DNA of 64,000 nucleotides. It comes from Patescibacteria group bacterium (GTDB taxonomy: Bacteria > Patescibacteriota > Patescibacteriia > UBA2591 > JAQUPP01). The first letter of the stretch is position 1; each line of letters opens with the position of its first letter. The stretch is from assembly GCA_028716665.1 (NCBI GenBank), contig JAQUPP010000001.1, forward strand, positions 282,860-346,859, in the 5' to 3' direction. The notes beneath the pieces are model-generated. The model was not told where the DNA came from and made no database searches. It saw only the letters and a list, made by a program, of their open reading frames with translations. Shown piece by piece: positions 31,490-52,595 of this stretch. The translations under genes were made by a program, and so were the position numbers.

Positions 31490-31499
31490 AATTTAGAAT

Positions 31500-32069
31500 A
31501 TGGCAAATAAAAATATACTAAAACCGATTCCAAATTCCAATCCGCCAGCTGGCGGACCAAATTCCGGTAAAAGAGCTTTCACTCTTATTGAGCTTGTTGT
31601 TGTTATCAGTATTACAGCTTTAATTGCCGGGATGGTTTTTGCCAATATGAGAAGCGGCGGTCGTTCCGTAAATATTAATTCCGACGCGGAAAAATTAGCA
31701 GGAGTTATTAAACAGGCCCAAATGATGTCTTTAAGCGGCCAGCAAATTAATGGGATCAGGCCGGACGATGGATACGGCGTTTATATTACAACTAATTCTT
31801 ATAAACTTTTTGTTAATGATAATTTAGGCTCCAGTCATTTATATGAAGCCGAAGATACGGTTGTTCAATCTTTTGATTTTACTCAGTATGTGGAAGCGAG
31901 TCCGACCGGAACGACCATAATTTTTATTCCACCTCAGAGTACAATTTATGTTGATGGAAGCCAACTTGGGGATCCGAAAACATTAATCCTCACTCAAACT
32001 CAAGAAAATTTAAATGCTTATGTGAGAATTAAGGCTTATGGCGAAGTTGATGTCCGCAAGTCGCCATAG
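31500..32069 (+). CDS. Type IV pilin-like protein with a 27-aa leader 'MANKNILKPIPNSNPPAGGPNSGKRA|FTLIELVVV'
   Basis: FTLIEL with Glu+5 and a hydrophobic helix; the leader DNA carries the heptamer repeat and the CCGCCAGCTGGCGG palindrome. Confidence 0.8.
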   Translation: MANKNILKPIPNSNPPAGGPNSGKRAFTLIELVVVISITALIAGMVFANMRSGGRSVNINSDAEKLAGVIKQAQMMSLSGQQINGIRPDDGYGVYITTNSYKLFVNDNLGSSHLYEAEDTVVQSFDFTQYVEASPTGTTIIFIPPQSTIYVDGSQLGDPKTLILTQTQENLNAYVRIKAYGEVDVRKSP

Positions 32070-32114: not shown

Positions 32115-32645
32115 ATGAAACGCAGCGCGCAAAGTTTAATTGAGACCATTGTTGCTATTGGCATGATCACGGTCGCCATAGTGGCTATTTTATCTGTAGG
32201 TTTAAGCAATTTAATGTTAAGCGGACAAACCTCGGAAAGAGTGATAGCGACAAATTTGGCTCGCGAAGGGGTTGAAATTATTAATGCCATCAGGAGTAGC
32301 CAAAGATTGGATCCGGATCAAACCTGGCCTTATGGTATGACAAATGGCAATTGGATAGTTGATTACGACGATTCCAGTTTAACCGCAGCCGATTCCGCTA
32401 CAATTGGTGCATGTGATAATTGCAGTCTTTATATAACCGGTAATGATGTTTATACTCGTGATTCCGGCAGTAATACATTAACGATTTATCGCAGATTAAT
32501 TAATATTTCTGATGGCGATATTTTAGGCGGAAATTGTCTTAACGTGGGAGATTGCGAAAAAATAATTACCTCCACGGTTTATTGGACAGAGAGAGGAAGA
32601 CCGCACAGTATTGAACTTAAAACTCATTTAACAGATTGGAGATAA
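32115..32645 (+). CDS. Minor pilin / pseudopilin-like protein (non-canonical 'KRSA|QSLIETIVAIG')
   Basis: Glu at +5 of a hydrophobic N-terminal helix; small size. Confidence 0.6.
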   Translation: MKRSAQSLIETIVAIGMITVAIVAILSVGLSNLMLSGQTSERVIATNLAREGVEIINAIRSSQRLDPDQTWPYGMTNGNWIVDYDDSSLTAADSATIGACDNCSLYITGNDVYTRDSGSNTLTIYRRLINISDGDILGGNCLNVGDCEKIITSTVYWTERGRPHSIELKTHLTDWR

Positions 32646-32703
32646 AGATGGAATCTAGAATATGGAATTTAGAATTTAGAATAAAAAACAAAAAATTTAA
32701 AAT

Positions 32704-33762
32704 ATGGAAGAAAGAACAATAATAAAATCATTTACTGATTTGATGGTGTGGCAGGAAAGCCATAAGCTTATTTTATTGATTTATAAAATTACCAAAAAAT
32801 TTCCAAAAGAAGAACTTTTTGGTTTAACAAATCAAATGCGTCGAGCCGGAGTTTCAATTACGTCTAATATCGCTGAAGGATTTTCCAGACAAAGTTTTAA
32901 AGAAAAATTACAGTTTTATTATATGGCTCTTGGCTCACTGACTGAAGTCCAAAATCAATTTTTAATAGCCAAAGATTTAAAATATTTAGATCAAATAGAG
33001 TTTAGAGAAGCTATTGGGCAAATAACAAGCGTTCATAAATTATTGAATGCTTTTATTAAAAAATCTAAATTGATTCTAAGTTCTAATCCAAATTCCAAAT
33101 TCCAAATTCCAAATTCTAGTAATAAGGGTTTCACCCTCATTGAGCTTTTGATTTCTTTAAGTATTTTAGTAGTAGTGATCTTATCAGCAGTTGGTATTTA
33201 TATTAATATTATCGGCACGCGCAGTAAAAGTTTGGGGCAATTGAATCTTCAGGAAGATGGGCAGTATATCATGAGCTTGATTGTGAAAGATATCCGCGCC
33301 AATAAAATAGATTATGATGAATATGGCGATAGTGATGAGAAAGATTGCGGAATTATAAACGTGAGCACCCTGAAAGTAGGAGACAATACTTCATCAAGAG
33401 TGGCAAAATTATGTTTACTTGATTTTAGTGCGACGCCGAATAAAATCAGATATAAAAGATGTCTTGATCCGAATAATGCAAACAGAGGTGTCCTAAAAAT
33501 ATGCAGAGGTGTTGACTGCACGACCAATGATTGTCCCTCCACGGGCGATACTTATCAAACAATAACTATGGCTAATTTGGGTGTTGAGCGCCTTGATTTT
33601 TATATCAATCCGTTTACTAATCCTTTTACGGCCGGTTCTATTACTTATATTCATCCTCGGGTTACTATAATTTTAAAATTAAAATCTTTAATTGAGAAAC
33701 CCGGTGAAAAACAAATAATTCTTGAGCAGACGGTTCCCCAGAGATACGAGCTCAAAAAATAG
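32704..33762 (+). CDS. In-frame fusion ORF: N-terminal four-helix-bundle protein (PF05635, '23S rRNA IVS'/Avd-like, ~120 aa), a heptamer-repeat-encoded linker 'SSNPNSKFQIPNSSNK', then a type IV pilin ('GFTLIELLISLSILVVV...')
   Basis: Family signature 'VSITSNIAEGFSR' in the N-terminal half; canonical prepilin cleavage/helix motif at aa ~142; the linker is a 4-unit 'ccaaatt' tandem (33088-33119). Confidence 0.7.
   Translation: MEERTIIKSFTDLMVWQESHKLILLIYKITKKFPKEELFGLTNQMRRAGVSITSNIAEGFSRQSFKEKLQFYYMALGSLTEVQNQFLIAKDLKYLDQIEFREAIGQITSVHKLLNAFIKKSKLILSSNPNSKFQIPNSSNKGFTLIELLISLSILVVVILSAVGIYINIIGTRSKSLGQLNLQEDGQYIMSLIVKDIRANKIDYDEYGDSDEKDCGIINVSTLKVGDNTSSRVAKLCLLDFSATPNKIRYKRCLDPNNANRGVLKICRGVDCTTNDCPSTGDTYQTITMANLGVERLDFYINPFTNPFTAGSITYIHPRVTIILKLKSLIEKPGEKQIILEQTVPQRYELKK
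33088..33119. repeat. AAATTCC/AAATTCT heptanucleotide tandem repeat (4 units); member of a dispersed family
   Basis: 'ccaaattccaaattccaaattccaaattctag'. Confidence 0.9.
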
Positions 33763-33821
33763 AATTTGGAATTTAGAATATAGAATTTAGAAAAAATAAA
33801 AATAAGAAAATAACATAAAAT

Positions 33822-34598
33822 ATGGAAAATAAAAATATACTAAAACTGGTTCCAAATTCCAATCCGCCAGCTGGCGGACCAAATTCTAGTAAAGATGGTC
33901 TTTCCATAATTTTAATTCTTTTGATTATTTCTTCTATTTTAACGGGCACGGTTATCGTTGGAGAAACTATTGTTAGACATACGCAGATAGTCAAAGGCGC
34001 TGAAGTTTCCGAAAAAGCCTTTTTTGCCGCTGAAACCGCGGTTGAAAAAGCGATTTATGGAGTGTTTAAAAATTACGCCAGTGTTACCACCGTTACCGAG
34101 GGCAGTATAATTTATGGCGCGACTTCCGCGACTTATTCAGCCAGTGTTAGCATCGACGTTGAAAATCCCGATACGGGTATTGATATAACAAATAGTGATC
34201 CTTGGATAATTTCTTTGGGAGAAGGAGAATCCTTTCAATTGAATTTGGATCTAAACAGCACGGCTTATCCTACGGCCTTGAGAATTGATCGGACGGGCGA
34301 TGGTTTTGGTGATTTGATTTTTTATCAATGTACCGCTTCCAGTAACGGATGTTCTTCTACGGAAAATCAAATTTTTTACTCGAATTTTACCGGACAGGAT
34401 ATTACTTTTAGTCCGTCTATTCCGACAAATTATTATCGAATTAGAATAAATAATTCAGGCGGAACCGGCACTTATACTTTAAAACCAAATTCCGCTACCC
34501 TGCCGATTGGTGTAAATATCACGGCGGAAGGATTCTATGGCGGTTACGAACGTCAGATAAATGACAATTATCCGAAGTGGCAGAAATTCGGGATATAA
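33822..34598 (+). CDS. Pilin-like protein with a duplicated leader 'MENKNILKLVPNSNPPAGGPNSSKDG'
   Basis: The first 23 codons are nearly identical at DNA level to the 31500 gene, including the CCGCCAGCTGGCGG palindrome; a hydrophobic helix follows. Confidence 0.6.
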   Translation: MENKNILKLVPNSNPPAGGPNSSKDGLSIILILLIISSILTGTVIVGETIVRHTQIVKGAEVSEKAFFAAETAVEKAIYGVFKNYASVTTVTEGSIIYGATSATYSASVSIDVENPDTGIDITNSDPWIISLGEGESFQLNLDLNSTAYPTALRIDRTGDGFGDLIFYQCTASSNGCSSTENQIFYSNFTGQDITFSPSIPTNYYRIRINNSGGTGTYTLKPNSATLPIGVNITAEGFYGGYERQINDNYPKWQKFGI

Positions 34599-34705
34599 TT
34601 TTTTTAATGTTTTTATCCACCCTTAAAGAATTGTAAATTTTATAATTAGTAATATACTTAATAGTATAATAATTAAAATTCTCAGAAAGAATTTTTAATA
34701 AAAAT

Positions 34706-37700
34706 ATGAAAATTTCCAATAAAGCGATAACTAATAAATTTTTAGTAAAAAGTTTTTTTATCGCTATTTTAATTATCAGTGCCAGCGCAATGGTTGTTTT
34801 TGCCTGGACAGAACCGACTTTAAGTCCGCCGGACGGAAATACTTCGCCGCCGATTAATGAGGGTTTAACCAGCCAGGGCAAGCTGGGTAATTTAGGTGTT
34901 GGAACAACAAGTCCGATAGAAAAACTTGAAATATATTCCGGAAATATTAATATTCGCCGTCCGGATAATAGCGCTACTATGGGCCTTCTTTTTTCTCAAG
35001 GAGTTAATGATTTATGGAGAACTTATATAACCAATGATAGCGCATCTGACTTAAGATTCCGGGCAGGCGCTACCGACCATATGACAATTCAATATTCTAC
35101 TGGCAATGTCGGCATCGGAACAACAGTTCCAGGATATCCATTGACAGTCAATGGCATTGTCCAAATTGGAACTAATTTATATCTTAATGGCGGAACGACA
35201 AAATATCTTTATGCCTCAGGGAGTGAATTAAGGATTGGAAGCCTCGGCGGCGGTGGTTTTATTTCATTTTACGGCAATGACGGTTCAAATCGCGAAATGA
35301 TGAGAATGACAGGCGCGAATTTGGGTATCGGGACAACAATTCCGGCATACAAGTTAGATGTGGTAGATAATACAAATGATATTAATGTTGGAGTTCGCGC
35401 AACGGCTGCTTCTAAAGCCGTTTATCTTAGATTAGAAGGTACTCACACTACCTATGGTGGTGTTATATATAAGACATCGGGGGCTGATACTTGGAAATTG
35501 GGAAATTTCGGAGATACTGCCGATTCCTTTAATATTTATACAGCAGGTTCAAATAGAATGACAGTATTATCCGGTGGCAACATCGGCATCGGGACAACAA
35601 TCCCGACTACGGTCTTAGATATTAATGGTGCTTTAACCGCTCGAGGTATGGCTGCTCCTTCAACTTCACCTGCGGGTCAAGGCAGAATATATTTTGATTC
35701 AACGGCCAATGTATTTAAGGTTTCAGAACATGGTGGCGTTTATACTAATCTTGTGGGTGGAAATTATTGGACCCGCGATAGTGGAAATGGATATCTTTAT
35801 TCTACGACTCTTACTGACAAAGTCGGTATCGGGACAACGGTTCCGGGGTATAAATTACAGATCAACAATACAGCAAAATCCGGGGCTGATAATGCGTTAG
35901 TCGCGATTAGCAGTTCTGATGCGACAAATCCTTTTCAATTTATTATTGGTAGGTCTGCGGCAGGAGCAGATTCTTATTACTCACTCCAATCAGTCGAGCA
36001 GAATACTGGTTATCGGGATATCGTGTTGCAACCAAATGGCGGCAATGTCGGAATTGGAACAACGGATCCGGGAGCGTATAAATTAAATGTAAATGGACAA
36101 ATTTTAGCCACTAGCTATATTCGCAGTGATAGTTATGTCCAAAGTCGTTCAACCACTCCTTATCTTGATTTATATCAAGATGGACAACAAGAGTGGAAAA
36201 TTGGACAACTTACAGCTGGCAGTAAAACTTTAACATTACAAGCTACTGGAGCAGCATCTCCAGATGTAATGACTTTATTGTCAACGGGTAATGTCGGTAT
36301 TGGGACAACAGTACCGGTTTCACCGTTGCATATTTATAAAGCAGTTGGCGGTGGAGGTATTACTACTTTTCTTACATTAGATCCGCATAGCGGAACCAAT
36401 GAAGATGGTTCAGCTATTGATTTTATTACTTCAACAGATACGGCAACTGTGGGAACTAAAATTGCAGGGGTGCGCGATGCGGCAGGTGCGTATGCTTCTT
36501 TAAGATTTACAACAAGAGGTTCAGATGGATTATTAGAACGAGTCAGAATAGCAAATAACGGCAAAGTCGGCATCGGGACGACAATACCGGGATATAAACT
36601 TGATGTTTGGGATTCCGGAGATGCGGCTATAACCAGAATTAATAATAATAACACAACCCATTACTATACCGGTTTGCGATTAGACAGAGAAGCTTCAGAG
36701 AAATGGTTTGTGGGTATGAATGCCACTGCCAGTAATGATAATTTAGTATTCAGGCGAGCAGGCACTACTGATGATATGGTAATCAGCACGAGCGGTTATG
36801 TCGGCATTGGAACAACCGCGCCAATATCGCAATTATCCGTAGCCATACCATACGCAAAAACCGATACCACAGAGCGCGATGCAATTAACATGGTGACCAA
36901 TGATACAAATCCCTTTAAACTGAATTTTTCAATTACAGGAGCGGCCACCATAGCCAATCGAGCGGCAATTTTACAAACCAGCGATAGTGGCTTGGCTTAT
37001 GGCGGAAATTTAATTCTTCAACCGAATACGGGCAATGTCGGTATTGGGACAACTGGACCAAGTGCTAATAAATTAGTTGTTGATGGCGGCGGACTTACTT
37101 TTCAAGGCGGCGGTTCTCATTATATTACCGGTTTAACGCCATTGGGAGCTGGCGATCCTGATACTTATGCCGCGAATAAAGGTTATGTTGATGCTATCGC
37201 AACGGGCAGTGTTGGTCTTTGGCAAGGTAGTATGACTGGCAATATTTATAAGGCTAATTCCGGCAATGTCGGCATCGGAACGACAGTGCCAGTAGAATTA
37301 TTGCATCTTAAAAAAGACCAAGCAGCTTATACAAATATAAAAATTGAAAATGCCAATTCTGCTGGAGCTGCGCAGGTATTTATGATTAATGATTTAGGTA
37401 GTGCCTACACTCAAGGACTATATGGTTCTACTCATGACGCCTATGGTGCCGTTTCTGCAAATGGTGGATTTACATATTTTAATGGGGCTGGTGGATTAAC
37501 CCTAATGGCAGATAATGCTGCGGGAATTATTAAATTTGCTACAGGAGGTAATAGTGAAAAGGTTCGAATTAATAGTACTGGTTATGTCGGCATCGGAACA
37601 ACAAACCCCTTAGAAAAACTTGAAGTATATTCTGGGAATATTCGTACTCACCGACCGGATAATAGCACCACCATGGGCTATCTTTACGCTCAAGCAGGCA

Positions 37701-38752
37701 CTGATTTATGGAGAACCTATACAACAAATGATAGCGCATCTGATTTAAGATTCCGAGCAGGCGCTACCGACCACATGGCAATTAAATATTCTACCGGCTA
37801 TGTCGGTATTGGAACGACAGGCCCGACACATAATTTACAAGTAAATGGGTATAATACTACTGGTACAAGCGTTGTTAATACAAAGGGGAACTATGATTTT
37901 TATGCTCCGGCTGGTCAATATCCTAGAGATTTGGGATTTGGGGTGATAGCCGGACCTGTTACGGGTAATGTTAATTTATATGGCCTTACTGACTGGAAAA
38001 GTGGTTATGGCGGTTATATAGGTGCTTGGTCAGATGTTACTGCTGCAACCGAGGGGAATACTAATGCGGCAGGTGTTGTTTCTATTTTACGAGGAAGTCC
38101 AACTAACAGTAATGCCTTTGGTTTTTATTCTGATTTGTCTAATTTTTCTGGGGCAGGAGGTAATACAAAATATGGTATTTATAGTACTGGAGAAACTTAT
38201 GATTATTTTGCCGGCAATGTTGGTATTGGGACAACGGTACCTTCTAATCTTTTAAGTGTTTGGGGGCAATTGGCTGTTGGTGAAATAGACATGCTAGATG
38301 CTCCTGATGGTGATAGAAATATTACAAATGTTAATAAACTTACCGTTGCAACCATTGATCCGGTCTATGAAATTAATGGTAAAAAGTATGCGACTTATGC
38401 CGCTTCAATTGCTGGCGGAGTGAAAGAAGAATACACCGGCAAAGCAAAACTTTTTGAAACAAAAACTTCAGAATACGAATACATAATTGATTTTAATAAA
38501 ATAGAGATTGGCTCTGACTTATGGGTTTGGAGGAATGCAGTGGATTTCTCGCGCGATAACGTGGATATATTGATTACCCCTTATGGAGAATCAGCTGATA
38601 TATATTATTTGATTGAAGGCGATAAAATAATTATTCGCGGCGACAAAATGGTTGAATTTTCTTACCGTTTAACCGGCAAAAGATTTGATTGGCAAAATTG
38701 GCCAACCTTATCTAAAGACCAAAATGAAAAAGCTTCATTTATTATCAAATAG
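34706..38752 (+). CDS. Giant secreted surface protein (1348 aa) with more than 15 copies of a Gly-rich 'xGNVGIGTT(I/V)PxxKLxVxG' repeat; phage-tail-fibre/beta-helix-like
   Basis: Signal peptide; the periodic repeats are readable in the translation; internal ~230-bp duplication (34901-35128 versus 37601-37828). Confidence 0.7.
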   Translation: MKISNKAITNKFLVKSFFIAILIISASAMVVFAWTEPTLSPPDGNTSPPINEGLTSQGKLGNLGVGTTSPIEKLEIYSGNINIRRPDNSATMGLLFSQGVNDLWRTYITNDSASDLRFRAGATDHMTIQYSTGNVGIGTTVPGYPLTVNGIVQIGTNLYLNGGTTKYLYASGSELRIGSLGGGGFISFYGNDGSNREMMRMTGANLGIGTTIPAYKLDVVDNTNDINVGVRATAASKAVYLRLEGTHTTYGGVIYKTSGADTWKLGNFGDTADSFNIYTAGSNRMTVLSGGNIGIGTTIPTTVLDINGALTARGMAAPSTSPAGQGRIYFDSTANVFKVSEHGGVYTNLVGGNYWTRDSGNGYLYSTTLTDKVGIGTTVPGYKLQINNTAKSGADNALVAISSSDATNPFQFIIGRSAAGADSYYSLQSVEQNTGYRDIVLQPNGGNVGIGTTDPGAYKLNVNGQILATSYIRSDSYVQSRSTTPYLDLYQDGQQEWKIGQLTAGSKTLTLQATGAASPDVMTLLSTGNVGIGTTVPVSPLHIYKAVGGGGITTFLTLDPHSGTNEDGSAIDFITSTDTATVGTKIAGVRDAAGAYASLRFTTRGSDGLLERVRIANNGKVGIGTTIPGYKLDVWDSGDAAITRINNNNTTHYYTGLRLDREASEKWFVGMNATASNDNLVFRRAGTTDDMVISTSGYVGIGTTAPISQLSVAIPYAKTDTTERDAINMVTNDTNPFKLNFSITGAATIANRAAILQTSDSGLAYGGNLILQPNTGNVGIGTTGPSANKLVVDGGGLTFQGGGSHYITGLTPLGAGDPDTYAANKGYVDAIATGSVGLWQGSMTGNIYKANSGNVGIGTTVPVELLHLKKDQAAYTNIKIENANSAGAAQVFMINDLGSAYTQGLYGSTHDAYGAVSANGGFTYFNGAGGLTLMADNAAGIIKFATGGNSEKVRINSTGYVGIGTTNPLEKLEVYSGNIRTHRPDNSTTMGYLYAQAGTDLWRTYTTNDSASDLRFRAGATDHMAIKYSTGYVGIGTTGPTHNLQVNGYNTTGTSVVNTKGNYDFYAPAGQYPRDLGFGVIAGPVTGNVNLYGLTDWKSGYGGYIGAWSDVTAATEGNTNAAGVVSILRGSPTNSNAFGFYSDLSNFSGAGGNTKYGIYSTGETYDYFAGNVGIGTTVPSNLLSVWGQLAVGEIDMLDAPDGDRNITNVNKLTVATIDPVYEINGKKYATYAASIAGGVKEEYTGKAKLFETKTSEYEYIIDFNKIEIGSDLWVWRNAVDFSRDNVDILITPYGESADIYYLIEGDKIIIRGDKMVEFSYRLTGKRFDWQNWPTLSKDQNEKASFIIK

Positions 38753-38780
38753 AATAATTAATAATCTAATTATAAAATAT

Positions 38781-39398
38781 ATGAACAAAAAAATTATTTG
38801 GATAATTATAATTGTCGTGGTGATTATTGGCGCAGTTATCGTTATTTTAAATCTTCCCAAAAAATCAACTATTCCTGCCACAGGCCAGGGAGAAAAAACA
38901 ACTCCCGTGGTAGTTCCTGAAGGAACTGTAGCCGCCCCGGAATTAAATCTTTCGCAAATTGTAGAACCGAAAGCGATTGTGCCTGGTGCCAGTCCGGTTA
39001 CCGGAGAAGGAAAAATTTTAACTGATGAAGGAAAAATAGCCAGTCCGGAGGGCGTTGCCCCGGGGGCGAAAGAAACCCCAAAACCATCCGCGCCGATTGA
39101 AGAAAATAAAATTCCTAAATCAGCTTTGACGATAAAAGTGAGCGCTCAAAATGGTTATGAACCTTCTCAATTTCGGGCCAAGGCCGGCCAAGTAGTAACT
39201 CTTTGCTTAGTGGGACTTGATGATAAATCGCATAGTCTTAATTTTCGTCATCCGAGTTTAAGCGGGCTGGTGATTACTATTATTGGAACAGAAACAAGAT
39301 GTCTTACCTTTAATGCGCCGATCGCGGGAACTTATGAATTTGCTTGCAGCAATCCGGATCATTCCAAGGAAGTTGGCCAAATGTTTATTACAGAGTAA
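38781..39398 (+). CDS. Membrane-anchored azurin-like cupredoxin (type-1 copper protein)
   Basis: N-terminal TM, Pro/Glu/Thr-rich linker, copper ligands His ('DKSHSLNF'), Cys/His ('FACSNPDH'), Met ('GQMF'); compare azurin C-x-x-P-G-H. Confidence 0.7.
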   Translation: MNKKIIWIIIIVVVIIGAVIVILNLPKKSTIPATGQGEKTTPVVVPEGTVAAPELNLSQIVEPKAIVPGASPVTGEGKILTDEGKIASPEGVAPGAKETPKPSAPIEENKIPKSALTIKVSAQNGYEPSQFRAKAGQVVTLCLVGLDDKSHSLNFRHPSLSGLVITIIGTETRCLTFNAPIAGTYEFACSNPDHSKEVGQMFITE

Positions 39399-39418
39399 CT
39401 TTAAAGGGTTTTGCCCTT

Positions 39419-41194
39419 ATGATTAAAAAAAATAGTAAAAAATTTAGAATAAAACATTTTTTACTATTTTTTATTTTTATAATTTTAGTTTTGCTTGCGA
39501 TAATTTTGCTTGCCAAAAACGCTCAAGCGCCGGGATTTTTTTATAATACTGAACCGCAGCCGGAAACAAAATCTAACCCTGAGCCTGTCAAAGGGACTAA
39601 CTCTGAGCCCGTCGAAGGGGCGAAAAATTCTCTTTCCGAATATTCTTCGGCCACTTTTAGTGATTCATTCTCGGGCCAGGCTTGGTTGGATACAACTCGG
39701 ACCAATTTATATTTTGATTGGACCAGCCAAAATCTTATTTTCCCGCCGGTTTTAGATACTGAAGAAGTTTCGGCCGGTGATTTTTTAATTAATTTTATTC
39801 CGGAAAAAATCAGTTCTGAAGGTGATTTTGCTCTGTTTGTCGGCACTCACCGCATCAGTCAGAAAAAACAATTGTTGATTTGGCAGATTAAAGAAAATCA
39901 CTGGTCAAAATTTGATGTTTCGACTTTGCTCAACATCAACCCTGAGTCTGCCGAACGGGTTGACTTTTCAACTTTAGGTCTTAGTGATACCGCGTCAATT
40001 CTCGGTTTGGAAAAAATTACTTCATCTTCAAATTGGCTGCTTTTCAGCCAAGACCCTTCAACCAACACTTCGGCCGTGAGCTCAGTGCCAAACGGCTCAG
40101 GGCAAGCCAACAATCTTAAAATTGATATTTTAAAAATTACGGATTCAGAAACAGATCATCCACGGATTGAATTAATAGCTGAAAAATCATGGCCGATTTC
40201 ATCTTTTAAAGATATTCAAATAGAATGCGGCGAAAAAAATTGTTTAATTGCCATCAGCGAGCCGTTAACTATTTTTAAAGTTGACACTAATGGCAGTTTA
40301 ACGACTTTAGAAAATTTGACAAAATCTTTAAAAGAAAATAATCCTGATCAAGTGGTTATTTCTAAGGGATTATCAGCGGAAAATTGGCTGGTGGTTCTAT
40401 CTAAGAAAATTCCGCGTCAGTCCGCGTCAAGTCCGTCTGAGTCCGCGCCTTTGTATCAATATGAGATTAATGAAATTAAAAATGAAACTCTAAATAACAA
40501 AGGTATCACTTTTACGGCCGAATATCCGGGCCGGCCGTCACTTTTAATTTTAAAAAATAAAAACATTTTTCTTTTTTGGGGAAGTTATTTTACTCAGGCC
40601 TATGAAATTACTCCTCAAAATAAACTGATTGATTTATCCGGCGATTTTGGTTGGCGAATTTCAGCCAATAAGCCGTTTCATCTTTATCAACTTTCTCATT
40701 CAATTTACATAAAAAATGAAGACCGTTCCATTATTCGCTGGGGAGGCGGAACCAATGTCAGAATTGATCCGAAATTTTGGTTTACTTTTAATCCCGATTT
40801 TTTAAAAATTATTCCTTATCCTCAAAATCAAGATTCAGGCTATCTTATTGCCGGGGTACCGTCAGGCGGAACAAAAATTTATCAATTTAACGATTTGGGT
40901 TTTGATTTATCCAAACCTCGCCAAATCGTTTCCGCTAAAATTAATTTTTCCGTAACTGAAATTAAAGCGGCTCAAATCACCAATTTACAAGGCAAAATAG
41001 ACAGCGCTCAAACAGAATATTGGCTTTCAAATGATGGCGGAAAAAATTGGGAAAAAGCGGAAATAGGCAAGCCGGTTATTTTTAAGACAGTTGGCAATGA
41101 CCTTCGCTATAAAATTATTTTAACGCCAAATTCCAATGATTCTTATACTGTCCCGGTTTTAAACTCAATCTATCTTTGGTATTGGTATAAATAG
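39419..41194 (+). CDS. Hypothetical membrane-anchored extracellular protein (592 aa)
   Basis: N-terminal TM followed by a large non-repetitive domain; no recognisable motif. Confidence 0.4.
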   Translation: MIKKNSKKFRIKHFLLFFIFIILVLLAIILLAKNAQAPGFFYNTEPQPETKSNPEPVKGTNSEPVEGAKNSLSEYSSATFSDSFSGQAWLDTTRTNLYFDWTSQNLIFPPVLDTEEVSAGDFLINFIPEKISSEGDFALFVGTHRISQKKQLLIWQIKENHWSKFDVSTLLNINPESAERVDFSTLGLSDTASILGLEKITSSSNWLLFSQDPSTNTSAVSSVPNGSGQANNLKIDILKITDSETDHPRIELIAEKSWPISSFKDIQIECGEKNCLIAISEPLTIFKVDTNGSLTTLENLTKSLKENNPDQVVISKGLSAENWLVVLSKKIPRQSASSPSESAPLYQYEINEIKNETLNNKGITFTAEYPGRPSLLILKNKNIFLFWGSYFTQAYEITPQNKLIDLSGDFGWRISANKPFHLYQLSHSIYIKNEDRSIIRWGGGTNVRIDPKFWFTFNPDFLKIIPYPQNQDSGYLIAGVPSGGTKIYQFNDLGFDLSKPRQIVSAKINFSVTEIKAAQITNLQGKIDSAQTEYWLSNDGGKNWEKAEIGKPVIFKTVGNDLRYKIILTPNSNDSYTVPVLNSIYLWYWYK

Positions 41195-41227
41195 AATTTT
41201 CTGATAATTTAAAATTGAAAAATCAAA

Positions 41228-41599
41228 ATGGAAAATGACAATGTAAATTTTAAAAATGAATTCAAAAAACGCCTTTATAACTGGGTTTTAAGATTAATCA
41301 AGTTTATAGACAAGCTTCCCAAAGACTCCGTATGTAATGTCTTGGGAAAACAGCTTCTAAGAAGTGGAACAAGCATTTTGGCAAATTATATTGAGGCAAA
41401 CTCAGCCAGCTCAAAGAAAGATTTTATTAATTTTTTCACTCATTCTTTAAAATCAGCCAATGAATCTAAGGTTTGGCTGACATTATTAAGAGATACTGAC
41501 AAAGGAGATAAAAATGAATTGCAGTGGTCATTAAAAGAACTGATAGAAATAGCCAATATTCTGGCTTCCAGCATTTTAACTCTCAAGGGTAAGAAATAA
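41228..41599 (+). CDS. Four-helix-bundle protein (PF05635 / TIGR02436, '23S rRNA IVS' / Avd-like)
   Basis: 'LRSGTSILANYIEANSASSKKDFINFF' family signature; 123 aa. Confidence 0.7.
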   Translation: MENDNVNFKNEFKKRLYNWVLRLIKFIDKLPKDSVCNVLGKQLLRSGTSILANYIEANSASSKKDFINFFTHSLKSANESKVWLTLLRDTDKGDKNELQWSLKELIEIANILASSILTLKGKK

Positions 41600-41673
41600 T
41601 TTTGACATTTTGAATTGTAATTTTAATTTTTGATATTTACATTTTGCATTTTTTAATTATCCACTTTATATTA

Positions 41674-41702
41674 TTGACCCACCCATAAAAAGGGGATACA
41701 AT
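41674..41702 (+). promoter_or_regulatory. Sigma70-type promoter (TTGACC-N17-TACAAT) for the giant fibre gene
   Basis: Read directly from the sequence. Confidence 0.45.
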
Positions 41703-41751
41703 ATAAGAGTAAAGTTAGTATTTTTAAGTATAAAATTGATTGTTTAAATAT

Positions 41752-44700
41752 ATGAAAAAACAAATATTTTCTTCAAAAATTATTTATTTTTCGATTTTTT
41801 TAATTTTAATTTGTTTTTCTTATTGGGGAGTAGAAAAAGTAAGGGCAGCTGATCCGCTGGACAATGATCAGATTGATATGCTGAAATATTTAGACATGAA
41901 TGAGCACGGGATTTTTAATTTAGCTACTCCGGTAGATGATGATAACGCCGCGACACAAGGATATGTTAAATCAGTAGTTTTAACAAATACTGGTTGGACG
42001 GCTACTGACAGCTATATTTATTTAACTACTATTGGTAATAGCGTCGGTATTGGAACAACAATTCCGGTCGCAAAATTGGAAGTTGCCAATAATTATAGCA
42101 GCACGGCAACGCTACCTTCGGCTAATATTGGTATAGTTGGGCGTAATTATACAGGTTCCGGCGCTGATGTTATTGGTGTCTATGGACAAGGAAAAACCAA
42201 TGACGCTTCTTATAACAGTTATGGCGGTTATTTTTATGGCACTTATAGCAGTAATAGAAATAAAGCGATTGGTATTTATGCTTATGGAAATGATTATGCG
42301 GCTATTTTGGATGGTACTGTCGGAATCGGATCATCAATACCGGCTACAAAATTAGATGTTAATGGCAATATTGCGGCGAATACCTATTATTCTCGTGGTG
42401 ATCCAATCGGTTATTTTCTTAATCCTGCCGCAGGTGGTACGGGTTGGGGATTATATTCCAATGGTTCTGTATATGCTTCTGGAAGTGATGATAATTATTT
42501 TGCCGGAAGCGTCGGAATTGGAATAACAAATCCGGGAGCAAAACTTTCAATCGTAACACCGGATACCAATTATTCAACAATATGGTCTAATAACGGTGGT
42601 GCAAATAATGAATATCTTTCTTTATATCAAACTGTTGATGATTTTATATTTACTTCCAATAAAAATGGTTCAGGAGTTCGTAAGGGTATAGGAATTACTG
42701 CCACAGGTGCGGATAATACCATGCCTAGTGGAATATATTTAAAAACAGACGGTTATGTCGGAATAGGAACAACAATTCCGGGTTTTAATCTTGATGTTTA
42801 TGGTTCAGGGGTTGTGGCATCGCAAATTGTAAGCACTAATAATTATTCAGCTCAATATATTAAAGGTGGTCAGAGCGGAGATGTACGCTGGGGATTATTT
42901 AGCGGATATCCGAATGTGGGAGATTTTACAATCAGAGAGACAGGAGTTGCTGATTATTTGACAGTCAAAAAAACTACCGGCAATGTCGGTATTGGGACGA
43001 CGATTCCAGGCATGGTATTAACAGTTAATACGAGTACTAATGATCAAGGTATTCAAATTCAAGGAGCAGCATCAAATATTAGTCCTGTACTTAAATTCGC
43101 AACTTCGGCAGGTACTGCTTATGCTCGTATTGGTATTGCGGGTGCAGCTGGTAATTTAGCTACAAACAGTGGTCAAAATGATTTAGTTATTAGAACAGAA
43201 GGTACTCAAAAACTTCATCTTGCTCCAGGAGCCGTTATTACTGAAACTTTGCTTTCTACTGGTTATGTCGGCATTGGAACAACAATCCCATCAACAAATC
43301 TTGATGTTAATGGCCAAATAAAAATCAGAGGAGGGGTACCTGGCGCTGGTAAAATTTTAATTTCGGATGCAGTTGGTTTAGCTACTTGGTCTCCTGCCAC
43401 TTCTATCAGCGATGGCGACTGGACAATTTCCGGCAATAATCAATATTCTGCTGTTTCCGGCAACGTCGGTATTGGGACAACGGATCCGACGGCAATTTTA
43501 CAAATTAATAAATCCACTGGCGGTAGTGGACAAAAATGGTTGATTCTTTCTACGACTGGAGCTTCCAGTGAAGGAATGGTTTTTAGAACTGACAATGGTG
43601 ATATTAATCGTATCACGTCTTATGGTGATTTGTATTTAGAATCCAATAATGGTTCAGGTGCTACTTTAGGACTTGATAGTGGTGGTCATTCTAGTTTTGG
43701 AGGTTATGTTTATGCACCCAGTTTGACTGTAGGTGGACTGGACATTACCCCACCGACAGAGGGAGCTATTATTTCCGGCAATGTCGGTATCGGGGTGACG
43801 GATCCAGTTAGTAAATTAGCAATTTTATCCGGAGCGGGTGTTGGCGGAATTTCAATCGGCACTGATGAAACTTATGCTGCTGTAGCTGCTCCCGACGGCG
43901 GAGCAATAATTGAAGGCAATGTCGGTATCGGTTATACAACTGCTTCTATAGATAAATTAAGAGTTAATGGTTCTATTATGTCTACGGGTCCTGCTGGTGG
44001 GAGTCCGTTGCTTACATCGGCTATTAGAATGTCAGTGGAAGGATCCGGAGCTTATGGACAAGTTCAAACTTATAATTCTGTGCCCTTAGTGTTAAACCCC
44101 ACAACTGCGGGCGGTAATGTCGGTATTGGCGTGACAAATCCGGGTAATAAATTAAGTGTTTATGGAGGCACAATAGGTGCTTATAATTTTGACGGAACCG
44201 ATGGTCTATTAATTGAAGGATATAGCGCTTCAGCTAGCGATGATGCAATGATGCAATTTCATACTTCGGGAGCGCTTTATAAAATGGGAATAGATTATTC
44301 TGATGAAGGAAAATTTAAGCTTACTTATGGTAGTGAAGATAATGGACAGACACAAATTGTAATGACTGGCTCCGGTAAGGTTGGAATTGGATTAGCAAAT
44401 CATACTCCGTTATCCAAACTGGACGTGTCGGGTAATATGGCTATTGGTTCTTATGCCGGGGCTAGCGCCGCACCTTCAAATAGTTTAATAGTTAGTGGCA
44501 ATATTGGTATTGGAACAACAGCACCGGGAATAGATTTAGCTATTGGCGATACTGATACCGGTTTAGATTGGGCGAGTGATGGTAATTTAAAAGTAATGAC
44601 TAATAATTCAGAAAGAATAAGAATCGCTTCAGATGGTAAGGTTGGAATTGGAACAACCGGGCCGGTAAATCCACTTCATATTTATTCGTCATCATCTTCT

Positions 44701-45963
44701 GTAATTCCATTGAGAGTTGACGATTATTATTATACTTATTCAATAGGAGCTGGAACTTTTTCATCGCCCAATACAAATGGATGGCAATTATACAAAGCAA
44801 GCTCGGAAACTTATTATGACAGCGTAGTGGGTGGGCATCATTTTTTGACCTCAGGATCTGAAAAAGTTACATTTACGAGTGATGGTAAGCTTGGAATCGG
44901 AACAGCTACGCCAGCAACATATTTAGACATCAAAGGAACACAAGTTGCCGGAAGCTACGGAGATGCCGCAACAGCGATAAAGATTAATATGACAAATGAT
45001 GCTTCATCAATCTATGGTGGAATTGCATGGAAGGACAGCGAAACAGCGGCCGAGACTTGCGGGATTTATCCTATGCGTTCGGGCGGAGTGAATTATTTCG
45101 ATTTTTTAAATACAGGTACAGTTTATATGAGGTTATTAGGCGGAACAGGAACAATCTTGAATGACAACAGCGCTGACTTGGATTTTCGCGTAGAAAGCAA
45201 TGATAACGCAAATATGTTTTTTGTTGATGGTGGGGCAAATACAGTAACAGTAGGATATAACGGATCACTTGGTTCTAAATTTAATGTTTATTCGGCGACA
45301 AATAACACAACACAATTTACCGGTCATCTATTGAATGTCAGAGCAGGAGATGGAACCACTAATACAATTAGTGAAATTGATTTCGGAGTAGCCAATACAG
45401 TAGCACCAGTTATTATCGGAAGTAAAGTTATAGACGGTTCCGGTGCTACAAAGGGAGATTTTTATATCGGGACAAGAGATTCGACAGATGGAGCAACGCT
45501 TCCAACAGAAAGATTAAGAGTAACAACCGCTGGCAAAGTCGGTATCGGGATAACAAATCCGGGACAAGCATTGGATGTTACTGGAACTATTCGCCAATCA
45601 GCTTGTAAAACAGCCGGTACTCTTTCCGCAAATACTTCAGGTGATATTATTTGTACATCTGATGAGCGATTGAAAAATATTTATGGATATTATCAAGGCG
45701 GACTTGCCGCGCTTTCCGCAATTAATCCGATAAAATTTTCTTATAAAGGAGAAGATTTCGTTCATGTGGGATTCTCGGCGCAGAATGTAAAAAGTGTTTT
45801 ACCTGAAGCCAGCGCCTTGCAGGATAGCGGTTATTGGAGCTTGGACGATACATCAATTACGGCATTAACTGTAAATGCCATCAAAGAACAACAAAAAGAA
45901 ATCGAAGATTTGAAAAATGTTGTCTGTCAATTAAAACCCGATGCAGATGTCTGCAATAAGTAA
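41752..45963 (+). CDS. Giant tail-fibre-like surface protein (about 1400 aa) with a C-terminal peptidase-S74 intramolecular-chaperone (autoproteolytic) domain
   Basis: Signal peptide; N-terminal 'IFNLATPVDDDNAATQGYVKS' tail-fibre-like motif; many GNVGIGTT repeats; C-terminal 'CTSDERLKNIYGY...HVGFSAQNVKSVLPEAS...ITALTVNAIKEQQKEIEDLKN' matches the endosialidase-chaperone domain. Confidence 0.75.
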   Translation: MKKQIFSSKIIYFSIFLILICFSYWGVEKVRAADPLDNDQIDMLKYLDMNEHGIFNLATPVDDDNAATQGYVKSVVLTNTGWTATDSYIYLTTIGNSVGIGTTIPVAKLEVANNYSSTATLPSANIGIVGRNYTGSGADVIGVYGQGKTNDASYNSYGGYFYGTYSSNRNKAIGIYAYGNDYAAILDGTVGIGSSIPATKLDVNGNIAANTYYSRGDPIGYFLNPAAGGTGWGLYSNGSVYASGSDDNYFAGSVGIGITNPGAKLSIVTPDTNYSTIWSNNGGANNEYLSLYQTVDDFIFTSNKNGSGVRKGIGITATGADNTMPSGIYLKTDGYVGIGTTIPGFNLDVYGSGVVASQIVSTNNYSAQYIKGGQSGDVRWGLFSGYPNVGDFTIRETGVADYLTVKKTTGNVGIGTTIPGMVLTVNTSTNDQGIQIQGAASNISPVLKFATSAGTAYARIGIAGAAGNLATNSGQNDLVIRTEGTQKLHLAPGAVITETLLSTGYVGIGTTIPSTNLDVNGQIKIRGGVPGAGKILISDAVGLATWSPATSISDGDWTISGNNQYSAVSGNVGIGTTDPTAILQINKSTGGSGQKWLILSTTGASSEGMVFRTDNGDINRITSYGDLYLESNNGSGATLGLDSGGHSSFGGYVYAPSLTVGGLDITPPTEGAIISGNVGIGVTDPVSKLAILSGAGVGGISIGTDETYAAVAAPDGGAIIEGNVGIGYTTASIDKLRVNGSIMSTGPAGGSPLLTSAIRMSVEGSGAYGQVQTYNSVPLVLNPTTAGGNVGIGVTNPGNKLSVYGGTIGAYNFDGTDGLLIEGYSASASDDAMMQFHTSGALYKMGIDYSDEGKFKLTYGSEDNGQTQIVMTGSGKVGIGLANHTPLSKLDVSGNMAIGSYAGASAAPSNSLIVSGNIGIGTTAPGIDLAIGDTDTGLDWASDGNLKVMTNNSERIRIASDGKVGIGTTGPVNPLHIYSSSSSVIPLRVDDYYYTYSIGAGTFSSPNTNGWQLYKASSETYYDSVVGGHHFLTSGSEKVTFTSDGKLGIGTATPATYLDIKGTQVAGSYGDAATAIKINMTNDASSIYGGIAWKDSETAAETCGIYPMRSGGVNYFDFLNTGTVYMRLLGGTGTILNDNSADLDFRVESNDNANMFFVDGGANTVTVGYNGSLGSKFNVYSATNNTTQFTGHLLNVRAGDGTTNTISEIDFGVANTVAPVIIGSKVIDGSGATKGDFYIGTRDSTDGATLPTERLRVTTAGKVGIGITNPGQALDVTGTIRQSACKTAGTLSANTSGDIICTSDERLKNIYGYYQGGLAALSAINPIKFSYKGEDFVHVGFSAQNVKSVLPEASALQDSGYWSLDDTSITALTVNAIKEQQKEIEDLKNVVCQLKPDADVCNK

Positions 45964-46054
45964 TCTATTGATTATTAAAGAATTAACGAGTTATGAAAAT
46001 AAAGAACATAAGCTAATTTCTAATTTTCAATTTCTAATTTCTATTGAATTTTAA

Positions 46055-46433
46055 ATGAATCAATTTTCAAACCCGAAAAACAAGGAATATAATTTAGAAG
46101 AAAGAACAGCCAAATTCAGCGAAGACATAATAGAATTCATAAGAAGCATTAAGAGAGACGATATTAATCGTAATATTATTACTCAATTAGCGCGTGCCAT
46201 AACTTCAATCGGCGCTAATTATTGCGAAGCTAATGCTTCCAGCTCAAAAAAGGATTTTCGCAATAAAATATATATTTGCAAAAAAAGAGGCCAATGAAGC
46301 AAAATATTGGTTAAGGATATTGGCTAAATATCATCCTGAATTGAAAGAAAAAATAAGAATTTTTTGGCAAGAAGCCCATGAATTTCATCTGATTTTTCAG
46401 AAAATTACCAACACCCTGGATAAAAAAGTTTAA
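46055..46433 (+). pseudogene. Four-helix-bundle (PF05635) gene disrupted by a frameshift in an A7 run near 46270 (two overlapping ORFs, 46055-46297 and 46233-46433)
   Basis: 'ITSIGANYCEANASSSKKDFRNK' continues in the +1 frame as 'IYIAKKEANEAKYWLRIL...'; paralogue of the 41228 gene. Confidence 0.6.
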
Positions 46434-46537
46434 AAATTAAAGAATTGAAAATTTAATAAAAATTAAAAATTAGAAATTGAAAATTAATTAAGTATTTATA
46501 ATCCGTTAATTTATAAATTAATAATCTAATTAAAGTT

Positions 46538-47140
46538 ATGAACAAAAAAACAATTTTGACAATCGTCATTATCGTGATACTCGTGGTGGTTGGTATTATT
46601 CTCGTGAAGAATATGCCTGCGCAAAAAACCATTAAAACAACCGTGCCAAAAGAAACGGTTACGCCAGGGACAACTCCAAATGTTGAAACCCCGATCGCTC
46701 CGGTTGAAGGAGCCAAACAAGCCGCGCCTGGGACAAGTTTTGTCACCAAGGAAGGCGAAGTTGTTACTCCGGAAGGAACGCCGGTTAAGCAAGATGCTTT
46801 GCCTGGTGCGCCTGAAGCGCCGAAACAATCAAAATCTTTAACTGAAACAGAAATTCCCGCCGGTTCAGTTCAATTAAACGTAACTGCCAGCGGTTTTACT
46901 CCGAATGAATTTTCCGTCAAAGCCGGTCAAGTTGTCACTTTAACCGTTACTGCCGGTGATGAGAAAACTCACGTTTTTAAATTTGATGACGCCAGTTTAT
47001 CCGCCGTGGCAATCGGTATTGCCGGACACGAAACTCGGGCGATTACTTTTAAAGCACCAGCCAAGGGAGATTATTCTTTCTTTTGTGATGTTCCGGGTCA
47101 TTCCCAGAGAGGCGAGAAAGGCGTGATGCATGTTAAATAG
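46538..47140 (+). CDS. Membrane-anchored azurin-like cupredoxin, paralogue of the 38781 gene
   Basis: 'EKTHVFKF', 'FFCDVPGH', 'GVMHV' ligands; N-terminal TM; conserved 5' region 'attaataatctaatta..atgaacaaaaaaa' shared with 38760-38790. Confidence 0.7.
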   Translation: MNKKTILTIVIIVILVVVGIILVKNMPAQKTIKTTVPKETVTPGTTPNVETPIAPVEGAKQAAPGTSFVTKEGEVVTPEGTPVKQDALPGAPEAPKQSKSLTETEIPAGSVQLNVTASGFTPNEFSVKAGQVVTLTVTAGDEKTHVFKFDDASLSAVAIGIAGHETRAITFKAPAKGDYSFFCDVPGHSQRGEKGVMHVK

Positions 47141-49001: not shown

Positions 49002-49131
49002 TTTATCCCCCTTTGTTTGAAAATGACCCTTTTTCGAGTCATTTATTGCCAAGCGAGCGAGGGAAAAGAAAATTTATTTTCTTTTCCGAGCGAGCGCTGG
49101 CAACACAGGGTCTAGTACCCTTTATAAATTA

Positions 49132-49160: not shown

Positions 49161-49213
49161 TCCCTTAAAAGATCGACAATAAAGCCTTTTCAGGGTTAAA
49201 AAGAAAAAGGGGG

Positions 49214-49242
49214 CTGACAAAACCATTAAAATATGCTTAAAT
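49214..49242 (+). promoter_or_regulatory. Conserved-family promoter (CTGACA-N17-TTAAAT), divergent from the previous one
   Basis: 'gggggctgacaaaaccattaaaatatgcttaaatga'. Confidence 0.5.
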
Positions 49243-49285
49243 GATAATAGTTGAACTAATAAGATTTATTATTTATAAAAATATT

Positions 49286-51343: not shown

Positions 51344-51443
51344 ATTTAAGATATTTTAAAAGGGTGGGTCGGTAATGGGCTTGCCCTTTTCTTTTTGTAA
51401 AGCTGCAAATTAATTCCTAAAGCCTAAAAAGATAATAACGGGC

Positions 51444-51472
51444 TTGACAAAACGTCTAAAATATGCTTAAAT
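51444..51472 (+). promoter_or_regulatory. Conserved-family promoter (TTGACA-N17-TTAAAT; alternative TATAAT at 51475)
   Basis: 'acgggcttgacaaaacgtctaaaatatgcttaaatgatataat'. Confidence 0.5.
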
Positions 51473-52436: not shown

Positions 52437-52566
52437 TGATTACTTATTATGTTGCGGGCAGGATGAAAACCTGCCCGTTTTTTTATTCATATAAAAATGT
52501 AAATATTTTATGTAGAAATTAGTAAATAATAAAACGTAGTATTCATCAGTATTCTAGGTGAGGGGC

Positions 52567-52595
52567 TTGACAAAAATCAAAAAATATGCTAATAT
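52567..52595 (+). promoter_or_regulatory. Conserved-family promoter with extended -10 (TTGACA-N17-TGcTAATAT)
   Basis: 'aggggcttgacaaaaatcaaaaaatatgctaatattta'. Confidence 0.55.

Follow-up and report, generated by a model that had tools for sequence, protein, structure and literature searches.

A recurrent Patescibacteria gene module encoding giant tail-fiber-like proteins, a predicted copper protein, and a propeller protein, with inserted PF05635 cassettes

The 64-kb stretch of Patescibacteria DNA analyzed here (the window, i.e., the stretch at its full length) contains a region (positions 32704 to 47140) that encodes giant tail-fiber-like proteins, cupredoxins, and small four-helix-bundle (4HB) proteins of the PF05635 family. 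We lean toward reading this region as a conserved Patescibacteria cell-surface module into which unrelated selfish cassettes have been inserted, the first fiber (FIB-A) being assisted by a redox-active cupredoxin (CUP) and a propeller protein (X). A preliminary description of the same DNA had proposed one three-gene module (i.e., 4HB protein, giant surface protein, and cupredoxin) that is present twice and was duplicated as a unit. This proposal omits X and does not hold. Since the two giant proteins share 26% identity and are of unlike types (non-S74 versus S74), the two cupredoxins share 40% identity, and the dominant order in related loci is fiber, CUP, X, and fiber, the window does not contain two copies of a three-gene unit; it contains one copy of a four-gene module (FIB-A, CUP1, X, and FIB-B) and an extra cupredoxin (CUP2) after FIB-B. 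The features of the region are as follows, with profile scores in bits (curated cutoffs: PF05635, 33.8; TIGR02436, 24; PF13473, 27; PF00127, 21.2; PF13884, 22).

32649..33118, + strand: putative 4HB cassette a; open reading frame (ORF) start 32704, 4HB domain end ~33070 (PF05635, 128.7; TIGR02436, 124.7)
34706..38752, + strand: FIB-A (FIB1), tail-fiber-like giant protein of 1,348 amino acids (aa) without S74; C-terminal domain CTD-A encoded at ~38183 to 38752
38781..39398, + strand: CUP1, predicted membrane-anchored type 1 copper cupredoxin, 205 aa (PF13473, 29.8)
39419..41194, + strand: X, 591 aa, with predicted N-terminal transmembrane (TM) helix, seven-bladed beta-propeller, and C-terminal beta-sandwich
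41208..41648, + strand: putative 4HB cassette b, discrete mobile-type element; ORF 41228 to 41599 (PF05635, 66.4; TIGR02436, 82.2)
41752..45963, + strand: FIB-B (FIB2), S74-type tail-fiber-like giant protein, 1,403 aa (PF13884, 34.2)
46013..46487, + strand: putative 4HB cassette c, frameshifted; ORF pieces 46055 to 46297 and 46233 to 46433 (PF05635, 35.1; TIGR02436, 46.7)
46538..47140, + strand: CUP2, predicted membrane-anchored type 1 copper cupredoxin, 200 aa (PF13473, 48.7; PF00127, 25.3)

Recurrence of the four-gene module

An alignment of 25 cupredoxin relatives (A1) led to 65 genome loci, which were fetched with 10-kb flanks and the ORFs of which were then clustered. The labels L002 to L155 denote related genome loci fetched for comparison; many of these are short contigs of metagenome-assembled genomes (MAGs), and some of their taxon labels are unreliable. 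The dominant gene order in the 65 loci consisted of a fiber, a cupredoxin (~200 to 250 aa), X (~450 to 620 aa), and a fiber. A fiber stood directly upstream of 41 of 81 CUP genes (fibers represent 14% of the locus ORFs; binomial P = 1.6e-14), and X stood directly downstream of 33 of 82 (X represents 7% of the locus ORFs; binomial P = 4.6e-18); because the loci are phylogenetically related, these P values overstate independence. The order FIB-A (with CTD-A), CUP, and X was found in 25 loci, which form 14 clusters at 70% CUP identity, and a fiber came next in 16 of them. The fiber after X is of the S74 type in L052, L058, L042, and L151, and tandem arrays of the form FIB-CUP-FIB-CUP occur in L042, L052, L058, and L060. 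In the window, 29 nt separate FIB-A from CUP1 and 20 nt separate CUP1 from X.

Since the 65 loci had been chosen through the cupredoxin, a reverse search was run with CTD-A as the query. Six of its matches on longer contigs were looked up, five of which were informative. CTD-A, a Cupredoxin_1 protein, X (450 to 500 aa), and a giant fiber were found together in three of the five (one with an annotated S74 domain). The fourth locus consisted of CTD-A, a gap holding a 4HB gene and HicAB, and X, and the fifth carried CTD-A with neither CUP nor X. No description of the fiber-cupredoxin-propeller combination was found in the searched literature, none of which ties the cupredoxins from bacteria in the candidate phyla radiation (CPR) to fibers, and the GNVGIGT motif of the fibers was not found there either. 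The conserved grouping of CTD-A fiber, cupredoxin, propeller protein, and S74 fiber thus appears to be undescribed, as had been supposed for the combination of 4HB protein, giant protein, and cupredoxin.

Giant fibers

The two giant proteins had been singled out by their GNVGIGTT-type repeats, and this observation was borne out: FIB-A carries 12 copies of the motif and FIB-B carries 13, with a further 5 in FIB3, a shorter fiber-like protein encoded downstream of the region. Matches to tail-fiber families of the PHROG database had E values of 3e-39 (FIB-A), 5e-28, and 5e-16 (FIB3). FIB-A and FIB-B also matched the sequence of Bdellovibrio Bd2133 (8ond; 1.2e-10 and 1.2e-4, respectively), and further fiber matches included the Bdellovibrio MAT entry 8ojn (1.2e-3) and, for FIB-B, T4 gp37 (6f45). 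In the profile search, the S74 domain was absent from FIB-A and FIB3; that of FIB-B has an SDERLK motif at aa 1303 (~45658) that fits SDxxxK.

The MAT fibers of Bdellovibrio are of S74 and non-S74 kinds and share the capping-loop consensus V-G-G/N-pi-x-x-P-x-x-x-L (Caulton et al. 2024, PMC10769870), with which the GNVGIGTTxPxxxL repeat agrees. They also possess a beta-rich domain, conserved and ~130 aa long, right after the signal peptide (PMC10769870), while the likeness reported here consists of the sequence match and the motif. The fibers of the present locus likewise carry N-terminal secretion signals and come in both kinds, and the producer of MAT fibers (i.e., Bdellovibrio bacteriovorus) likewise lives on other bacteria. 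The fibers appear to be new members of the MAT/tail-fiber kind. They differ from MAT fibers in two respects. The C-terminal tip of MAT fibers is variable, whereas the C-terminal domain is the most conserved part of FIB-A; moreover, a search of PMC10769870 for the word "operon," which has 0 occurrences there, brought up neither a cupredoxin nor a propeller protein as a partner.

In many loci, the fiber that immediately precedes CUP shares CTD-A (~150 to 190 aa; E = 1e-53 to 1e-75), whereas the remainder of these fibers varies from ~550 to 2,300 aa. An exhaustive profile search collected 257 clusters (50% identity; E ≤ 1e-30) of the CTD-A family. The match lay at the C terminus, or no more than ~30 residues from it, in 150 of the 150 matches listed, in proteins of up to ~3,200 aa. 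A Pfam search with CTD-A alone gave no match even at E ≤ 1. Among the fetched loci, the N termini of FIB-A and FIB-B matched close relatives only. FIB-A also contains an internal repeat of 269 nt (34886 to 35154, near the start, and 37580 to 37848, near the end; 79% identity), so the encoded segment is present twice in the protein. The mismatches between the two copies involve all four bases without adenine bias and fall mostly at third codon positions.

It is highly improbable that the locus is what remains of the tail-fiber region of a prophage or tailocin. The strong PHROG tail-fiber matches, the S74 domain, and the sequence match to T4 gp37 would suit such an origin, but no other phage structural genes are present among the ORFs annotated from 21 to 52 kb of the window, and the fibers bear secretion signals. 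The neighbors are ComEC, PilD, glycosyltransferases, and a release factor, with ligA and gatCA nearby in many lineages.

Cupredoxins and the propeller protein

Both cupredoxin genes proposed in the preliminary description scored above the PF13473 cutoff, and the expected fold and His/Cys/His/Met site were recovered. In the AlphaFold2 model of CUP2 (mean predicted local distance difference test [pLDDT] score, 88.8), residues 3 to 24 form a TM helix. Because the pLDDT is 97 to 98 over residues 60 to 200, a conserved, Pro-rich, linker-looking stretch is considered part of the fold. The best Foldseek matches of CUP2 in the PDB were auracyanin (6kol; E = 5e-8; 122 aligned columns) and the copper-bound Cupredoxin_1 protein 4hcf, followed by plastocyanin and the CuA domain of NosZ, all with a Foldseek probability of 1.00. 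The four ligands (H145, C183, H188, and M197, in CUP2 numbering) are invariant in 25 of the 25 aligned sequences, CUP1 included. CUP is a putative auracyanin-like tethered type 1 copper protein with a predicted copper site. A protein identical to the cupredoxin is recorded in the Patescibacteria MAG GCA_028713475.1 and on a 640-kb contig.

Tethered type 1 cupredoxins such as auracyanin (PF13473/PF00127) resemble CUP in their N-terminal membrane tether and His/Cys/His/Met site. They differ in setting: near CUP there is no respiratory or photosynthetic partner, and its conserved neighbors are giant fibers and the propeller protein. Cupredoxins of CPR bacteria have been considered electron donors to NirK (PMC5581439; PMC12931201), and this assignment, the invariance of the four type 1 copper ligands, the auracyanin-like architecture of a TM tether and a cupredoxin domain, and the presence of some CUP genes among housekeeping genes without fibers would all agree with an ordinary extracytoplasmic electron carrier (e.g., a NirK donor) that merely shares an envelope operon with the fibers. 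We regard such a coincidental association as unlikely. FIB-A-CUP-X is kept across the 14 clusters with <70% CUP identity and reappears in the search with CTD-A, and cupredoxins alternate with fibers in the tandem arrays. In addition, the conserved neighbor families that were examined (up to 10 kb away, in the 65 loci) comprise neither NirK nor an oxidase nor any other redox enzyme; read from the sequences, they include ligA, gatCA, TyrRS, ClpP, pilB/C, and ABC transporter genes.

X is predicted to consist of a TM helix, a seven-bladed propeller, and a beta-sandwich, and thus to have its own membrane anchor. An apparent assignment of X as a second cupredoxin was rejected as an artifact of single-linkage clustering through a read-through ORF (L021, 499 to 1731). 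Neither CUP nor X matched any PHROG assembly-protein family.

Three side observations concern the surroundings of cupredoxin genes. The Laminin_G_3 giant proteins encoded after the cupredoxin in some loci (L004 to L008, L010, and L015 among them) are ~900 to 1,280 aa long, begin with an N-terminal GWGWSENxGWIS motif, and often have DNA ligase as the next gene. In many other loci, arrays with a 7-nt period (period-7 or heptamer arrays) are found immediately 5' of the start codon of the cupredoxin gene. The shared 5' flank noted earlier for CUP1 and CUP2 is present, in that the 17-nt string AATTAATAATCTAATTA, followed by ATGAACAAAAAAA, occurs 5' of both genes; its copies (38756 to 38772 and 46516 to 46532) end a few bases before the start codons. 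With up to 2 mismatches, AATTAATAATCTAATTA also precedes the cupredoxin in L002 (9913), L066 (9961), and L153 (~15620); these are close relatives plus one distant locus (38% cupredoxin identity). The string could be a cis-element, or it could simply be one more heptamer array.

PF05635 genes as discrete cassettes

The 4HB proteins are ordinary members of PF05635, a family already reported within rRNA insertions of CPR bacteria (10.1101/2024.02.27.582315). All scores of the three window genes exceeded the PF05635 and TIGR02436 cutoffs, and the 4HB genes proposed at 41228 to 41599 and at 46055 to 46433 were thus confirmed, the latter with an apparent frameshift, which consists of one extra A in an A-run (~46283) relative to the intact copy in L153. 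In cassette a, the 4HB domain occupies aa 12 to 122 of a long ORF. None of the three cassettes is located inside rRNA, including 23S rRNA; all lie between protein-coding genes.

Relatives of the 41228 protein number at least 222 on metagenome contigs, the best 80 at 81 to 95% identity. Cassette b relatives are far better conserved than the flanking module genes, with X relatives falling to 70% identity within one lineage. In the best 80 loci, CUP or X stood beside the cassette in 0 cases, and the next gene encoded a fiber in 1 of ~78. The contigs often carry multiple copies, nearly always co-oriented with their neighbors, and 102 Pfam families were found among 116 neighbor proteins, the commonest being Laminin_G_3 (8) and PrgI (6). 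When 50 copies were aligned with 200-nt flanks, column conservation increased from ~0.4 to ~0.85 to 0.9 at 41208 (20 nt 5' of the ATG) and dropped at 41648 (~48 nt 3' of the stop codon); because of these two edges, cassette b is taken to be a unit of ~440 bp. A public 17-kb contig covering the downstream half of the locus (JAQTOE010000023.1) ends within cassette b (~41442), which fits a multicopy element that breaks assembly.

Most cassette b copies have terminal inverted repeats of 18 to 31 nt that include the start codon. All three window cassettes are bracketed by period-7 arrays, the upstream array recurring downstream as its reverse complement. L153 and L038 show this arrangement as well, and the array sequences differ among cassette types. 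The arrays of cassette a lie at 32651 to 32682 and 33087 to 33116, and the inverted repeat of cassette c (46021 to 46056 and 46451 to 46486) is 36 nt long and 83% complementary. The sequence features suggest that the three PF05635 genes are self-contained inverted-repeat cassettes of ~440 to 470 bp that sit, co-oriented, in intergenic gaps and are not parts of the module.

The ORFs of 23S rRNA intervening sequences belong to the same protein family (PF05635/TIGR02436/bAvd) and are likewise bracketed by inverted repeats, but the present ORFs stand in protein-coding operons, and when RNAalifold was applied to 44 cassette b copies, it did not yield a conserved long-range stem (-2.0 kcal/mol; minimum free energy z-score, -1.2). 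An RNase III stem of the intervening-sequence type is therefore unsupported. The pairing energy of 70-nt 4HB flanks (RNAduplex) was discarded as a stem measure, as it did not separate 4HB genes from control genes (mean, -16.5 versus -19.3 kcal/mol); because the sequence is AT rich, pairing energy is a poor measure, and the repeat-based analysis is informative instead.

The cassette at 32704 had been described as a 4HB gene fused to a pilin gene. Filled and empty versions of this site (i.e., the c11 pilin gene's 5' end) are available for comparison. In L154 and L155, the pilin leader is uninterrupted (MKEKNILKFIPNSNKK/GFTLIELL), and there is no cassette. The same site holds two different 4HB types in the window and in L153, where the leader now comes from the 3' heptamer array of the cassette (window, …SNPNSKFQIPNSSNK/GFTLIELL; L153, MILKNKCYNVKMLKCYNAK/GFTLIELL). 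The leader coordinates are 33069 to 33125 (window), 2456 to 2530 (L153), 1593 to 1650 (L154), and 1233 to 1290 (L155). The orthologous pilins stand alone (187 to 224 aa) in L059, L062, L154, and L155, and the window gene has lost its native ATG, with a TTG at ~33069 as a possible start. The fusion is accurate insofar as a single ORF carries both the 4HB domain and an N-methylation motif, but it is a by-product of cassette insertion at the pilin gene's 5' end.

The co-occurrence of 4HB, fiber, and cupredoxin genes anticipated in the preliminary description was found in part: the cupredoxin lies beside a fiber as described above, but 4HB genes occur in ~11 of the 65 cupredoxin-centered loci, and their relatives occur in unrelated contexts. 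The actual third component is X. A system of three components, in which an Avd-like bundle would act on the fiber genes or proteins (e.g., through regulation or diversification like that of a diversity-generating retroelement [DGR]), is accordingly very unlikely and already largely refuted by the neighborhoods of the cassette b relatives, the sharp bounds of the cassette b DNA block, and the lack of 4HB genes in most module loci. In its favor, the only three 4HB genes of the 64 kb all fall inside this 14-kb region; a fiber follows the 4HB gene in 7 of 11 cases in the cupredoxin-centered loci (P = 2.5e-4, uncorrected for relatedness); the gap that separates X from FIB-B contains a 4HB gene in the window, L002, L153, L154, L155, L038, and L039; and four 4HB genes are present in the locus of a relative (L153). 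However, other selfish genes (GIY-YIG, PDDEXK_3, Y1_Tnp, and HicAB) occupy like positions in relatives.

The DGR version of this idea was rejected. The Avd accessory proteins of DGRs share the PF05635 family, but no window ORF of >150 aa has the reverse transcriptase motif Y[ILVMAC]DD, and the window contains no adenine-biased pair that could serve as template and variable repeats, its sole long repeat being the unbiased one within FIB-A. Since reverse transcriptase and template/variable repeats are both missing from the window, the locus is not a DGR. The Avd models also stayed below their cutoffs (NF033474, 27.9 and 14.6 bits versus 80; PF22296, 29.3 versus 40).

The locus is an insertion hotspot. 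The small selfish genes seen in the gaps of the relatives' locus (L153, L154, L155, and L148) encode GIY-YIG and PDDEXK_3 proteins, a Y1 (IS200-type) transposase, and HicAB, and up to four 4HB genes accompany them. Period-7 arrays also occur elsewhere in the window (3067 to 3193, 3802 to 3899, 28146 to 28218, and 53785 to 53821); one array lies inside a GT2 glycosyltransferase gene and gives rise to a protein insert of the NSKFQILNSK type.

Pilin genes beside the module

The module of the window is preceded by a prepilin peptidase gene and four genes for pilin-like proteins.

30716..31489, + strand: prepilin peptidase PilD (PF06750, 111 bits; Peptidase_A24, PF01478)
31500..32069, + strand: pilin-like protein, cluster c28; N_methyl motif (PF07963) at aa 23 to 47
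32115..32645, + strand: pilin-like protein, cluster c43; no Pfam match; cluster mates in L059 and L062 bear GF[ST]L[IV]E, in equal gene order
33069..33762, + strand: pilin, cluster c11; in frame with cassette a; N_methyl motif at aa 138 to 162 of the long ORF
33822..34598, + strand: fourth pilin-like gene; no Pfam match; position conserved in L059, L062, and L153 to L155

The order c28, c43, c11, pilin-like gene, FIB-A, CUP, and X recurs in L059 and, in a rearranged form, in L062 (cupredoxin identity to the window, ~45% in both), and the closer relatives L153 to L155 have an equal pilin-module order. PilD precedes the locus also in L153 and L154, and c28 orthologues adjoin FIB-A-CUP in L059, L060, and L062. 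The same minor-pilin set is found beside FIB-A-CUP-X in three lineages. In most module loci, however, pilin genes are missing from the surrounding 10 kb. The type IV pilus setting emphasized in the preliminary description is real for the window and these relatives, but because pilins lie beside the module in some lineages only, the module is not defined by a link to type IV pili. As a side observation, the 5' ends of two pilin-like genes (31494 to 31571 and 33816 to 33893) are 92% identical over 78 nt and encode a leader of the form MxNKNILKxxPNSNPPAGGPNSxK, the remainder of the genes being unrelated.

PilY1 ends in a seven-bladed propeller, and the present locus resembles fimU-pilVWXY1 operons in that genes for a prepilin peptidase and four pilin-like proteins stand before those for a large surface protein and such a propeller. 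It is conceivable, but quite unlikely, that a minor-pilin complex built from the four pilin-like proteins displays FIB-A and/or X at a pilus tip in the manner of fimU-pilVWXY1. Although PilD and the pilin-like genes lie directly upstream and the set recurs in L059, L062, and L153 to L155, the pilins are absent from most module loci, and X has a predicted membrane anchor of its own. X has no Pfam match to PilY1/PilC, and PilY1 is absent among the fold matches listed; the identification of X as PilY1 was rejected on this basis.

Other features of the window

Two further features were annotated near the module.

41674..41702, + strand: promoter-like site of FIB-B (TTGACC, 17 nt, TACAAT)
49241..51343, + strand: FIB3, shorter fiber-like protein, 700 aa; 5 motif copies (PHROG tail fiber, 5e-16)

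The sequence of the FIB-B promoter-like site is kept 3' of the cassette in L153 and L155. The promoter/terminator scan as a whole yielded approximately the number of hits expected from shuffled sequences and was informative for the FIB-B promoter alone. Neither CUP, X, nor 4HB genes are adjacent to FIB3. Upstream of the module lie genes for ComEC, a metallo-beta-lactamase, a GT2 glycosyltransferase, and a PMT_2 protein, followed by PilD and the pilin-like genes.

Farther downstream, there are three copies of a repeat that resembles a promoter, (C)TTGACAAAA…AAAATATGCT(T)AA(A)T (49208 to 49242, 51438 to 51472, and 52561 to 52595), and two of them precede FIB3 and the 51561 gene. A clostripain-family peptidase (Peptidase_C11; 47313 to 49052, - strand) and a 291-aa protein (51561 to 52436, + strand) both end in a Por_Secre_tail/CHU_C sorting domain. 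This type IX sorting domain, which is also present on neighboring genes in L153 to L155, is unexpected for Patescibacteria, in which we know of no type IX secretion machinery. PADLOC gave no credible match to a defense system in the window, the sole hit being that of CUP2 to PD-T4-6 (E = 0.009; 13.6 bits).

Proposed function of the module

In the reading toward which we lean, the fibers would be exported and would serve host attachment, by analogy with MAT fibers. FIB-A would be a trimeric, MAT-like fiber without S74 that ends in the conserved CTD-A, while FIB-B would trimerize via its own S74 autoproteolytic chaperone. CUP would be held on the membrane's outer face by its N-terminal helix, with X anchored alike. 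Trimeric fibers begin folding at the C-terminal end, and FIB-A may be nucleated and/or retained through CTD-A by the membrane-anchored CUP-X pair, as suggested by the analogy with the assembly/tip proteins of phage fibers. In phages, such proteins are encoded directly downstream of the fiber gene (e.g., T4 gp37/gp38 and the Tfa proteins of Mu and lambda). The present locus is similar in that the chaperone-less FIB-A immediately precedes small accessory genes, while the S74 fiber is usually followed by none. It differs in that CUP and X match no PHROG assembly family and are membrane anchored and in that CUP is a predicted copper redox protein. At the surface, CUP would also transfer electrons or sense the redox state together with some partner; such activity is expected because the copper site is strictly conserved and the anchoring model does not explain this.

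Several points weigh against this reading. The 65 loci were retrieved by a CUP2-type peptide pattern, and the ORFs of the fetched loci are crude, shadow-filtered stop-to-stop segments. A fiber neighbor is lacking altogether for some CUP genes (e.g., those beside TyrRS and ClpP in L024, L032, L041, and L045), and eight directly precede a Laminin_G_3 giant protein instead. In L153, a 4HB gene fills the slot of CUP1, and in L155, a Y1 transposase gene does, with CUP retained after FIB-B in both. Across lineages, 4HB genes of different types turn up repeatedly at shared junctions (i.e., between X and FIB-B and at the pilin 5' end), which may reflect few permissive intergenic gaps in compact genomes, a site preference, or a function. 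Finally, a role in assembly or anchoring leaves the invariance of all four copper ligands unexplained.

A more far-reaching version would make the tethered blue-copper protein a working part of the host-contact apparatus of the fibers, exchanging electrons with the host envelope or sensing its redox state; separately, the PF05635 genes would be operon-colonizing inverted-repeat mobile elements that even supply pilin leaders. We consider this combined version quite unlikely. If true, it would provide a redox link to the host for a bacterium without a visible respiratory chain in the window.

To our knowledge, how Patescibacteria recognize and attach to their hosts is largely unknown. Since the 4HB genes are hitchhiking cassettes, the presence of an Avd-like 4HB gene in such a locus is no evidence for a DGR or for a partnership with its neighbors. 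The conserved copper ligands of the cupredoxin partner are unexpected in a fiber locus, the cupredoxins of CPR bacteria having so far been discussed only as NirK donors. The recurrent and easily recognized four-gene module provides concrete candidates for the attachment apparatus of these bacteria and ties them to the recently described MAT fibers of predatory bacteria.

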